Source: Candidatus Latescibacterota bacterium
GTDB lineage: Bacteria; Latescibacterota; UBA2968; UBA8231
Direction: 5' to 3'
NCBI GenBank assembly: GCA_964291625.2
Contig: OZ220090.1
Location: 192,001-256,000 of the forward strand
Length of the DNA stretch: 64,000 nt
Shown piece after piece: positions 49,995 through 53,842 of this stretch. The translations under genes and the position numbers were made by a program. Under the pieces are notes generated by a model, which saw only the letters and a program-made list of their open reading frames with translations, searched no databases and had not been told where the DNA came from. Position 1 is the stretch's first letter. Each line of letters starts with the position of its first letter.

Positions 49995-51245
49995 CTACCG
50001 GACCAGGTAGTACCGGCTCTTCCCGCGGCGGATCACCACGCAACGGCCGTGGAGGCGGTCGTCCCGGCCGACGCGGCGGGACTCCTCGGTGCAGCGCTCG
50101 CCGTTGAGGTAGATGGCGCCGGCGCCGATCTCCTGGCGGGCCTGCCGCCGGGAGCTGGAGACCCCGGCGTCGACGAGCAGCTCCACGAGGCCCTGCTCGT
50201 CGCCCTCCATGTCGTGGGAGGGCACGCCGTCGAAGGCCAGCTCCAGGTCCTCCTCCCGCAGGTCCCGCACCCGGCCCTGGAACAGGGCCCGCGAGATGCG
50301 CTCGGCCTGGCTGGCGGCCCCGGGGCCGTGGACGACGGCCGTGGCCTCCCGGGCCAGGGTGCGCTGCGCCTCCCGGGCGCCGGGATCGGCGGCCACCGAC
50401 TCCTCGAGCTGGCGGATCTCGTCGGGGTCGAGGAAGGTGAAGATCCGCAGGTAGCTGCCCACCGTGCGGTCGTCGGTGTTGATCCAGTACTGGTAGAATT
50501 CGTAGGGCGAGGTCCGCTCCGCCGAGAGCCACAGGGCCCCGGCCTCGGTCTTGCCGAACTTGGCGCCGCCGGCGCTGGTCACCAGCGGGCAGGTGAGGCC
50601 GAAGGCCTTGGCGCCGTCGGCCCGGCGGATCAGGTCGGAGCCGGCGGTGATGTTGCCCCACTGGTCGCTGCCGCCGGTCTGCAGCTGGCACCCGAGGCGC
50701 CGGTGCAGCTCCAGGAAGTCGAAGGCCTGCAGCACCATGTAGCTGAACTCGGTGTACGAGATGCCGGTCTTCAGGCGTGAGGCGACCGACTCCTTGGCGA
50801 GCATGTAGGGGACGGGGAAGTGCTTGCCCACGTCGCGCATCAGCTCGATGGCGGTGACCCCGGAGAGCCAGTCGAGGTTGTTCACCAGCCGCGCCGGGTT
50901 GGTCCTCACCTCGAAGTCGAGGAAGGGCTCCACCTGGGTCCGGATCCGCTCGGTGAAGGTCTCCACCACCTCCACCGGGTTCAGGGCCCGCTCGCTCTCC
51001 TTGCCGCCGGGGTCGCCGATCAGGCCGGTGCCGCCGCCCACGAGGCAGATCGGGTGGTGCCCGGCCAGCTGGAAGCGGCGCAGCATCAGCAGCGGCACGA
51101 GGTTGCCGATGGTGAGGCTGTCGGCGGTGGGGTCGAAGCCGTTGTAGAGGGTGATCGGCCCTTGGTCCAGCCGCTCCGTGAGGCCGTCGAGGTCGGTGAC
51201 CTGGTGCAGCAGGCCCCGGTACATGAGATCTTCGAGGACGTTCAT
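49995..51245 (-). CDS. tyrS: Tyrosine--tRNA ligase
   Basis: GFDPTADSLTIGN (HIGH-like), QTGGSDQWGN, KFGKT, C-terminal S4 domain. Confidence 0.96.
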   Translation of the reverse strand: MNVLEDLMYRGLLHQVTDLDGLTERLDQGPITLYNGFDPTADSLTIGNLVPLLMLRRFQLAGHHPICLVGGGTGLIGDPGGKESERALNPVEVVETFTERIRTQVEPFLDFEVRTNPARLVNNLDWLSGVTAIELMRDVGKHFPVPYMLAKESVASRLKTGISYTEFSYMVLQAFDFLELHRRLGCQLQTGGSDQWGNITAGSDLIRRADGAKAFGLTCPLVTSAGGAKFGKTEAGALWLSAERTSPYEFYQYWINTDDRTVGSYLRIFTFLDPDEIRQLEESVAADPGAREAQRTLAREATAVVHGPGAASQAERISRALFQGRVRDLREEDLELAFDGVPSHDMEGDEQGLVELLVDAGVSSSRRQARQEIGAGAIYLNGERCTEESRRVGRDDRLHGRCVVIRRGKSRYYLVR

Positions 51246-51261
51246 CTCTTTCGCTTCCCGT

Positions 51262-51302
51262 AAAGAAAAACCCCCGATGACGGGATCTCCGTCACCGGGG
51301 GT
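51262..51302 (-). terminator. Intrinsic (attenuator) terminator in the tyrS leader
   Basis: mRNA ACCCCCGGUGACGG-AGAUC-CCGUCAUCGGGGGU then UUUUCUUU, 16 nt before the tyrS ATG. Confidence 0.85.
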
Positions 51303-51324
51303 GTGAGGTCGAAGGGACCGGCGT

Positions 51325-51405
51325 CTAGCGCTCTGTTCCCCCGGTGCGGATGGTCTCGGCCCGGCGGTATCGGCGGTCGCTGACGATCGTTGCATCCGGT
51401 CTCAT
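51325..51405 (-). CDS. Putative tyrS leader peptide (26 aa)
   Basis: MRPDATIVSDRRYRRAETIRTGGTER*. Starts 7 nt after the -10. One Tyr codon (51367-69). Contains the antiterminator strand. Confidence 0.6.
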   Translation of the reverse strand: MRPDATIVSDRRYRRAETIRTGGTER

Positions 51406-51412
51406 GTCGGCC

Positions 51413-51442
51413 AATGTACAAGTCCCCGGCCGAAAACGTCAA
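51413..51442 (-). promoter_or_regulatory. Sigma70 promoter of the tyrS leader
   Basis: TTGACG, 18 bp, TACATT on the minus strand. Confidence 0.65.
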
Positions 51443-51525
51443 TCTCGCACTCGGCCCCGCGCGGGGCGTCAGGAGCTCTCCGGCGCTATCTTCCCGTCCA
51501 TCCACCGAATCCAAGGAGATCCCCC

Positions 51526-52374
51526 GTGACCCTTCCCACCCGCACCCTCGGCCGCACCGGCGAGACGGTCACCGCCCTCGGCCTGGGCGGCGTCTGCTGG
51601 AACCTCGCCGACGAGGACGCCGAGGCCGTGGCCGTCGTCCACCGCGCCATCGATCTCGGCGTCACCTACCTCGACACCGCCTCCAAGTACAAGGAGAGCG
51701 AGCGCCGCCTCGGGCTGGCCCTGAGGGACCGCGACCGCGACGGGCTGTTCCTGGCCACCAAGTGCCTGGAGCGCTCCGGGGAGGCGGTGCGGCAGGAGAT
51801 CGCCGCCAGCTTCGAGCACCTCGGGGTGGAGCAGATCGACCTGATGCAGCTCCACGCCATCGACGAGGCCGGGACCCTCGAGGAGGTGCTGCGCCCCGAC
51901 GGCGCCCTGGGCGTGATCGAGGAGTACCGCCGGCAGGGCAGGATCCGCTTCGTCGGCCTCACCGGCCACACCCATCCGGCCCACTTCGTGCGCATGATCG
52001 GCGAGTACGACTTCGACACCGTCCTCAACCCCCTGGGCGCCGCCAACCGCGTCTGGAACGACTTCTCCTCCACCACCATCCCCGCCGCCCGCGCCCGCGG
52101 CATGGGGATCATGGCCATGAAGGTGATGGCCTACGGCCAGGTGCCGGCCGAGGACCGGGGGCTGTTCCTGCGCTACGCCATGGGTCTCGACCTCGACGTG
52201 GCCGTCGTCGGCATGGACACGGTGGAGCAGGTGGAGGAGAACGTGGCCCTGGCCGAGGCTTTCCCGCCGCTCACCAGTGCCGAGGAGGCACGGCTCTTCG
52301 ACGTCGCCGGACAGGTGGCGGCGGGGGACAAGAGCAAGCTGTTCTGGCTGCCCGAGACACGGGCCGCGGGCTGA
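51526..52374 (+). CDS. Aldo/keto reductase
   Basis: RTLGRTG, LDTASKY, LATK, IDLMQLH. Confidence 0.9.
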   Translation: MTLPTRTLGRTGETVTALGLGGVCWNLADEDAEAVAVVHRAIDLGVTYLDTASKYKESERRLGLALRDRDRDGLFLATKCLERSGEAVRQEIAASFEHLGVEQIDLMQLHAIDEAGTLEEVLRPDGALGVIEEYRRQGRIRFVGLTGHTHPAHFVRMIGEYDFDTVLNPLGAANRVWNDFSSTTIPAARARGMGIMAMKVMAYGQVPAEDRGLFLRYAMGLDLDVAVVGMDTVEQVEENVALAEAFPPLTSAEEARLFDVAGQVAAGDKSKLFWLPETRAAG

Positions 52375-52386
52375 GGAGGAGGAGAG

Positions 52387-53238
52387 ATGGAGAAGCGCGA
52401 GTACGGCCGGACGGGCGAGAAGCTGTCCATCGTCGGCCTGGGCGGCATCCTGGTGAGCGGGGTCGATGCGGACGAGGCGAGGGGCCTGGTGGCCGAGGCG
52501 GTCGACCGCGGCGTCGACTACTTCGACGTGGCCCCCACCTACGGCAACGCCCAGGAGATGCTGGGCCCGGCCCTGGAGCCCTACCGCAAGGATGTCTTCC
52601 TGGCCTGCAAGACCACCGAGCGCACGGCGGACGGAGCGCGGCGCGAGCTGGAGGAGTCCCTGCGGCTGCTGCGCACCGACCACGTCGACCTCTACCAGCT
52701 GCACGCTGTCAACACCGACGAGGACTTCGATCAGGTCACAGGTCCGGGCGGCGCCCTGGAGCTGTTCCGCGAGGCCAGGGAGCACGGGATGACCCGCTAC
52801 CTCGGTTTCTCCTCCCATTCCTCGGAGACGGCCCTGCGCCTGATCGAGGCCGTGGACTTCGACTCGGTGCTCTTCCCCGTGAACTGGTGCACCTGGCTCG
52901 GGGCGGACTTCGGGCCCGCGGTGGTGGCCGCGGCCGAGGCCCGGGGGACGGCCCGGCTGGCGCTGAAGGCGCTGGCCCGCGGCAAGATGGCCGCCGGCGC
53001 CGAGCGCAGGTGGGCCAAGTGCTGGTACGAGCCGCTGGAGGACCGGGAGCTGGCCGACCTGGCCCTGCGCTTCGCCCTGTCGCAGCCGGTCACCGCGGCG
53101 ATCCCGCCGGGGGAGCCGGCCCTGTTCCGCATGGCCCTGGAGATCGCCGAGAGCTTCAGGCCGGTCACGGAGGAGGAGGTGGACCGGCTGAGGCGTGAGG
53201 CGGCTTCCGGCCGGCCGATCTTCGAGCTGGCCGCGTGA
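52387..53238 (+). CDS. Aldo/keto reductase
   Basis: YGRTG, FDVAPTYG, LACK, DLYQLH. Confidence 0.9.
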   Translation: MEKREYGRTGEKLSIVGLGGILVSGVDADEARGLVAEAVDRGVDYFDVAPTYGNAQEMLGPALEPYRKDVFLACKTTERTADGARRELEESLRLLRTDHVDLYQLHAVNTDEDFDQVTGPGGALELFREAREHGMTRYLGFSSHSSETALRLIEAVDFDSVLFPVNWCTWLGADFGPAVVAAAEARGTARLALKALARGKMAAGAERRWAKCWYEPLEDRELADLALRFALSQPVTAAIPPGEPALFRMALEIAESFRPVTEEEVDRLRREAASGRPIFELAA

Positions 53239-53287: not shown

Positions 53288-53364
53288 GGGCGATTAGCTC
53301 AGCTGGTCAGAGCGCCTGCCTTACAAGCAGGAGGTCCCCCGTTCGAGCCGGGGATCGCCCACCA
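53288..53364 (+). tRNA. tRNA-Val (anticodon TAC)
   Basis: Acceptor stem GGGCGAT/ATCGCCC, D-arm, anticodon arm CCTGC-CTTACAA-GCAGG, TTCGA T-loop, encoded CCA. Confidence 0.96.
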
Positions 53365-53632: not shown

Positions 53633-53842
53633 ATGGTTGCGATTCCCAAAGATTGGATCGAGCGGGCGGCTCGAGTCTACAAGAGCAACTCGGAAGCCAG
53701 CAAAGCCCTAGGGATCGCGTCGGGCAGCTTCGCCCGCCTGTGCCGCAAGTACGGCATCGAGACTCCCTACGCCCGCCAGGAAAAGGCGCGCCAGGAGGCC
53801 AGGTCCCGGCGGAAGTCCAAGGGGCGGGACCGCGGCCGGTGA
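53633..53842 (+). CDS. Small basic helix-turn-helix protein (69 aa)
   Basis: MVAIPKDWIERAARVYKSNSEASKALGIASGSFARLCRKYGIETP... shows a Fis-like HTH pattern (N.S.AA..LGI....L...KYGI). Confidence 0.7.
   Translation: MVAIPKDWIERAARVYKSNSEASKALGIASGSFARLCRKYGIETPYARQEKARQEARSRRKSKGRDRGR

Follow-up and report, generated by a model that had tools for sequence, protein, structure and literature searches.

Does the ribosome that translates a short leader peptide set the level of tyrosine-tRNA ligase, and could a single tyrosine codon be enough for it to do so? This question is raised by the region ahead of tyrS in a Candidatus Latescibacterota bacterium, which we analysed within a 64,000-nucleotide stretch of its genome (the window; contig OZ220090.1, positions 192,001 to 256,000). 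A preliminary description of this region had read it as a ribosome-dependent attenuator and, as far as sequence comparison can carry the matter, this reading is supported by the conservation of the upstream reading frame and its Tyr codon, by the absence of a T-box and by covarying pairing between the leader and the terminator.

The tyrS leader in the window

The presumed regulated gene is the open reading frame at 51245–49995 (minus strand, as are all parts of the element), which encodes a protein of 416 residues that matched TIGR00234 with 374 bits (cut-off 113.8) and also PF00579, in agreement with the earlier call of tyrS; it is the only TyrS match in the genome beside TrpS. Upstream, a promoter scan identified the -35 hexamer TTGACG (51437–51442) and, after an 18-nt spacer, the -10 hexamer TACATT (51413–51418), which form the sole promoter-like site in 50900–51900 (shuffle mean 0.0); -35 boxes of the TTGAC or TTGCC type are found in most relatives. 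This is the promoter as first described, with an ATG (51405) that follows the -10 box at a distance of 7 nt, and transcription is predicted to start at or adjoining this ATG. The leader frame that it opens, also as described, is leaderless and has 26 codons followed by TAG (51325–51405; stop at 51327–51325), with one Tyr codon, Tyr13 (51369–51367), which together with the rare Arg12 codon before it makes up a CGA-TAC pair (51367–51372) that is conserved in relatives. The leader frame had no match in Pfam, and when the window leader was dinucleotide-shuffled 300 times, a Tyr-bearing frame in a comparable place came up in 1% of the shuffles.

Between this frame and tyrS, the terminator scan and folding agree on the strong intrinsic terminator reported before (51262–51302). 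It has a 14-pair stem at 51302–51270 with a 5-nt loop, followed by TTTTTCTTT (shuffle mean 0.2 sites), its fold had a z-score of -3.1 that none of 200 shuffles equalled, and the hairpin with its U-tract lies 25 nt ahead of the TyrS start. The 5' arm of this terminator lies within segment 3 (51288–51301), which by folding and pairing analysis would double as the 3' strand of an antiterminator, the 5' strand of which (segment 2, 51338–51350) lies in leader codons 19–23. The perfect and extendable complementarity that had been claimed for these strands is indeed present: 51346–51338 matches 51301–51293 in 9 uninterrupted Watson-Crick pairs, and four more pairs (51350–51347 with 51291–51288, A51292 being bulged) extend the duplex to 13 bp, at -28.2 kcal/mol. 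To these elements the minimum-energy folds add one that was absent from the preliminary description, a predicted protector (1:2) hairpin (51339–51367) in which codons 14–16 pair with the 5' part of segment 2.

An assembly artefact was ruled out, as a contig from a public run (which may be the source sample itself) is identical over 51009–52400, with 0 differences, and relatives share the element. Two RNA runs were available as contigs only, from which no starts, ends, strand or levels are readable: in X1 a 931-nt contig extends from 51296 past the promoter and on into the divergently transcribed gene, with a flat depth like that of DNA, and in X4 a 173-nt contig from a related strain spans the terminator. 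In the minimum-energy fold the U-tract region (51269–51246, minus strand) pairs weakly with a purine-rich stretch before the tyrS start, and this pairing may possibly add a translational layer. Divergent from the tyrS promoter region are two tandem aldo/keto-reductase-like genes (51526–53238, plus strand), and further along, beside a tRNA-Val at 53288, is a small protein of 69 residues (53633–53842, plus strand) with weak helix-turn-helix matches below cut-off; by eye, a C-terminal stretch resembling that of this protein ends just upstream of the tyrS promoter at L006, L009 and L010.

The leader among relatives

We sought tyrS in 60 related genomes, obtained a match in 59 and inspected the DNA upstream. 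The upstream frame and its Tyr codons proved to be conserved, a point that the preliminary description had put forward as a check: a Tyr-containing leader and a terminator precede tyrS in 30 of the 37 genomes of the window's Latescibacterota family (with leader starts chosen by promoter distance or a Shine-Dalgarno rule, not by Tyr content, the rule having been fixed only after the frames had been viewed), and a C-run/G-run hairpin with a U-tract does so in 32 of the 37. The seven genomes without the full layout comprise four with no leader, one with no U-tract, one with no standard start codon and one in which the region is cut by a contig end. In genus g3 (L015 and L020) no promoter, leader or terminator stands between tyrS and the gene immediately before it, an apparent loss of the attenuator. 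L021/L094 has a Tyr-bearing frame homologous to the leaders of L019 and L096, with no ATG, GTG or TTG and with a short repeat at the expected start position; it is possibly a leader with a non-standard start or a decayed one. At L033 (332–273, minus strand) a leader with two Tyr codons and CGA-TAC is followed by a GC-rich hairpin lacking a U-tract, and its output is possibly a different one, Rho-dependent or translational.

Tyr is present in all 30 leaders, in one to six copies (at least two in 23 leaders and a single one in seven), and accounts for 13.6% of their 616 residues, encoded by a mixture of TAT (45) and TAC (39). The TAY triplets fall overwhelmingly in the leader frame (84, 2 and 11 in frames 0, 1 and 2, i.e., 84 of 97 in frame), and the Tyr count stood out from dinucleotide shuffles (P ≤ 0.05) in 28 of the 29 leaders tested, although these P values overstate the case because the related genomes are not independent. 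Named Latescibacterota records supplied 21 further distinct leaders, most of them from one close group, all with 2–4 Tyr codons.

Of the 30 leaders, 13 from three genera (13 of 13 leaderless ones) have their start codon exactly 7 nt past the -10 box, and 16 have it 15–47 nt away, five of these with a clear Shine-Dalgarno sequence; the promoter of the one other leader was unmatched by the pattern used. Within the leaderless group the distance from the start to the first Tyr codon is 7, 8, 12 or 13 codons, with the frame kept. Genome-wide, there is a small peak of TAnnnT 6–8 nt before ATG starts (19, 24 and 22 vs. mostly 2–14), and leaderless genes therefore exist in this genome. In a TyrS tree of 37 rows, of which those of the window's subclade have the highest third-position GC (96–98%), the leaderless forms are nested among leadered multi-Tyr lineages, with two changes; a single origin was not rejected (p-AU 0.196). 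Because of this nesting, both the 13 leaderless leaders of the 30 and the seven with a single Tyr appear to be derived forms.

The codon that precedes Tyr is itself distinctive. CGA stands directly before a Tyr codon in 20 of the 30 leaders and in 9 of 15 genera, whereas it makes up 3.6% of the Arg codons of this genome, 2.1% of those before Tyr, and 4.7% in the tyrS genes of 30 relatives. Among leader Arg codons, 20 of the 29 before Tyr are CGA vs. 10 of the 89 elsewhere (9 of 15 vs. 2 of 32 when each genus is represented by a single genome, Fisher P = 1.5e-4, related genomes not being independent). The RRYRR context pointed out in the preliminary description thus holds for the window, in which Arg flanks the Tyr codon, but what is conserved is the CGA-TAY codon pair and not an RRYRR peptide. 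Reading of CGA by inosine wobble is established knowledge, and CGA is probably read in this manner here, as no tRNA-Arg with a UCG anticodon was among the tRNAs found in the genome. RNA pairing as the cause of the CGA preference was unsupported (the A of CGA was paired at 0.36 vs. 0.55 ORF-wide). According to the available text of PMC4046918, CGA in the leader of the Salmonella his operon is a slow codon that relieves attenuation, and we infer that a slow CGA codon likely tunes the race between ribosome and polymerase; its conservation may alternatively reflect shared ancestry together with an RNA- or DNA-level constraint.

Leader-terminator units are also found before trpE, one aspS and thrS in this genome. 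The genome-wide terminator scan was incomplete, having missed the thrS leader, and of 15 matches inspected from searches with five synthetase families besides tyrS, in which starts were often misplaced, leaders were seen only for thrS and the one aspS. A Thr-rich ORF of 40 codons and a terminator lie upstream of 4539527 (plus strand of G000:C1) before the thrS-type gene, and near 3779008 (plus strand) an Asn/Asp-rich short ORF and a terminator precede the second aspS-type gene, and a few bases ahead of this leader is a promoter-like site. The trpE leader (near 1706098, minus strand; L140/L146) has three Trp codons, a further Trp, a Tyr and a terminator, and homologous leaders occur at most of 30 trpE loci; in this genome trpE is followed, 2.4 kb downstream, by a trpS match. 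The same CGC-CGA stands ahead of the Trp run of this trpE leader, and over the 30 trpE loci CGA accounts for 14 of the 26 Arg codons that precede Trp or Tyr vs. 13 of 94 elsewhere, counts that include three probably wrong ORFs of the 30 (L153, L155 and L165); other members of the window's genus have CGT or CGG, not CGA, at this position of the trpE leader.

In two sister families, f2 and f4, tyrS lacks its own leader and comes after a trpF-like frame; at all five loci fetched it is the terminal gene of a trpE-to-trpF operon, the leader of which combines Trp and Tyr codons with a U-tract terminator. These leaders (L141:4981, L142:4705, L143:6912, L144:7012 and L145:7043) contain Trp, Tyr and Phe codons, and most end in Cys-x-Pro or Cys-Pro, a motif that they share with trpE leaders in the window's genus. 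Within the class, tyrS appears from these layouts to be placed under Tyr-codon control in two ways, by its own leader or at the end of a trp operon. We further speculate, tentatively and with more doubt than conviction, that one Tyr codon may suffice as the rare, wobble-read CGA before it primes stalling, and that this module of CGA plus control codon recurs class-wide in tyrS and trp leaders, with tyrS governed through Tyr codons by either of the two routes.

Predicted switch and rival explanations

We folded the leaders up to just before the 3' G-run of the terminator with an assumed ribosome footprint of 18 nt upstream and 9 nt downstream of the A-site codon. With a ribosome at a Tyr codon the predicted antiterminator probability was above 0.5 in 33 of 35 leaders (mean 0.88), and with a ribosome at the stop it was below 0.5 in 30 of 35 (mean 0.28); in these predicted folds antiterminator and terminator are mutually exclusive, the antiterminator strand being free when control codons are occupied and masked when the stop is. 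For the window, the predicted advantage of the antiterminator is 6.3 kcal/mol when Tyr13 occupies the A site and 1.6 kcal/mol in the ribosome-free leader (energies of a forced antiterminator at Thr18, Arg20 and the stop were left out, since they override the footprint). The ribosome-free energy of the protector hairpin nearly equals that of the antiterminator, from which it is predicted to differ by 1.6 kcal/mol as the weaker of the two. The model also forms the window's antiterminator with a ribosome at nearly any position between codon 2 and about codon 19, and with a probability of 0.92 in the ribosome-free leader; ribosome-free probabilities were below 0.5 in only 15 of the 35 leaders. Since Tyr13 is not distinguished by the fold model alone, it is conservation that speaks for Tyr specificity, and because the terminator wins at equilibrium (in the full transcript with Tyr13 occupied, its state is still predicted to be better by 4.7 kcal/mol), the switch must be kinetic.

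The compensatory pairing that the preliminary description had suggested looking for was evaluated by permutation among 18 representatives, and the two strands do covary: over 13 window settings a leader paired better with its own terminator than with permuted ones (P 0.0002–0.047), the 12-nt arm being marginal (P 0.047) and the longer arms (P 0.0002–0.017) having been chosen after the first result. This signal comes mainly from the leaderless clade with its long distal helix, in which two-sided changes are found at L006, L008, L010 and L011, and elsewhere largely from G-run with C-run pairing. At the best settings the own partner ranked first or second in only 5–6 of the 18, and the MAFFT alignment shifts the register of segment 2.

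A conserved short ORF, cognate control codons and an intrinsic terminator are thus all found ahead of the structural gene, and we consider it highly probable that the tyrS element functions as a classical ribosome-mediated transcription attenuator, which would raise tyrS expression when charged tRNA-Tyr is scarce. From the parts, their order and their conserved layout, which can be read directly, we infer ribosome loading, stalling, antitermination and masking as follows. A ribosome would load at the leaderless 5' end and trail RNA polymerase; were it to linger at or before Tyr13, it would open the protector hairpin, and segment 2 could then pair with segment 3 before the 3' arm of the terminator is synthesised, letting the polymerase read into tyrS. 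A ribosome that moves past about codon 19 in time would instead cover segment 2, the terminator would fold and the terminated transcripts would end 25 nt before tyrS. In the attenuation model, as given in the available portion of PMC1183508, a control region with few regulatory codons leads to low sensitivity. A single control codon would therefore give a shallow response over a high basal level, which would fit an essential synthetase.

The subclade's leader might instead mainly sense Arg-tRNA, or a general slowing of ribosomes, and not Tyr. The window's single Tyr stands among four Arg codons, including the slow CGA, with Arg on both sides of it, Arg is likewise enriched over all leaders (19.2% of residues), [RK]Y[RK] occurs in 15 of the 30, and the antitermination that the fold model predicts for a stall almost anywhere in codons 2–19 would be in keeping with such a sensor. 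Arg starvation likewise relieves trp attenuation in E. coli. R-Y-R is also an Arg/Lys-X-Arg/Lys motif, of the type that arrests ribosomes with macrolides in the accessible text of PMC12583479. However, [RK]Y[RK] is missing from half of the leaders, and Tyr, which no leader lacks and which reaches six copies, is alone among the enriched residues in matching the gene; as Arg also flanks the Trp codons of the trpE leaders, it looks like context and not signal, and we regard an Arg or general-slowing sensor as quite unlikely. We give still less credence to the single-Tyr version being a degenerate relic, a constitutive damper acting by fixed partial termination with no amino-acid response. That it has only one Tyr codon, that the tree sets it inside multi-Tyr lineages and that the leader or the U-tract has been lost in some relatives would suit a relic, whereas across the 10 genomes of the window's genus the N-terminal codons vary and the length changes in frame while CGA-TAC and the antiterminator pairing are kept.

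It could also be that the antiterminator is set by a protein (e.g., TyrRS) or an uncharged tRNA bound to the leader RNA; UAC would then serve as specifier or recognition site, with the ORF playing no role. In the window, folding predicts an unpaired A in the CGA codon, and the T-box, which controls tyrS in 25 of 32 attenuated cases of one survey, is the only known system given in the first two of 36 tyrS rows of its supplement (PMC2965389). The T-box was excluded by our searches: with Rfam we identified only a tRNA in the window and no T-box, five matches around the leader had E-values of 1.7–5.2, far under cut-offs, and RF00230 had no match in the genome (95% complete) or in 18 related tyrS loci while matching both Bacillota-type tyrS loci used as controls (128 and 132 bits), which settles the Rfam check that had been proposed at the outset. 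In addition, only about 105 nt separate the start from the terminator, no T-box bulge sequence was seen on reading, and, as there are one to six in-frame TAY codons of both kinds with a start and a stop, the ORF looks translated and not like a single specifier. Binding of the leader RNA by a protein or tRNA is thus very unlikely in our judgement, and we prefer the ribosome-mediated attenuator.

Comparison with known systems

Leader-peptide attenuation of synthetase genes is known from E. coli pheM-pheST. Like that system, the element precedes and would control an aminoacyl-tRNA synthetase gene, and, like it and the trp/his/pheA class (as described in the available text of PMC1183508), it has a short ORF with cognate codons; protector, antiterminator and intrinsic terminator likewise share strands. 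It is unlike them in its gene and amino acid (tyrS and Tyr), in its leaderless start, in having the antiterminator strand inside the last codons of the ORF and in the CGA kept before the control codon; it also has one control codon, where the same portion of PMC1183508 states two or more for attenuators. In the full-text literature we found no leader-peptide attenuator for tyrS, in line with what the preliminary description had said, and supplement rows and surveys that were only partly covered may list one; the mechanism is a textbook one, on a gene for which no published example was found.

Published leader peptides, in the portions of the sources consulted, precede trpS, thrS, leuS, alaS and hisS-type genes. 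Those of Streptomyces lividans (TrpL2-trpS, ThrL-thrS, LeuL2-leuS and AlaL-alaS; available text of PMC8079986) resemble ours in preceding synthetase genes, and TrpL2 is, like the window's leader, leaderless with a single cognate (Trp) codon, while ThrL is leaderless with two Thr codons; both lack the U-tract terminator that the window element has, and the same text contains 0 matches for tyrS or tyrosine. A leaderless leader with one control codon, which had been called unusual, is thus a subclade trait among relatives that are mostly leadered with 2–6 Tyr codons, but such a synthetase leader was already known for trpS. Bacillus His leader peptides before hisS paralogues (partial text of PMC2965389) similarly occur where other lineages have a T-box, with His and not Tyr.

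If our reading is true, tyrS and tyrosine would join the synthetase genes under ribosome-read leaders, in a phylum that lacks a cultured model. The relatives offer a natural series from six Tyr codons and a leadered start to one Tyr codon and a leaderless start, which together with the conserved CGA would make testable the minimum number of control codons and whether the P-site codon context is selected for sensitivity. With the T-box leader of tyrS (RF00230) the element shares the gene, uncharged tRNA-Tyr as the inferred signal and antitermination as the output; unlike that leader, it has no Rfam match, and its proposed sensor is a translating ribosome and not the binding of tRNA.
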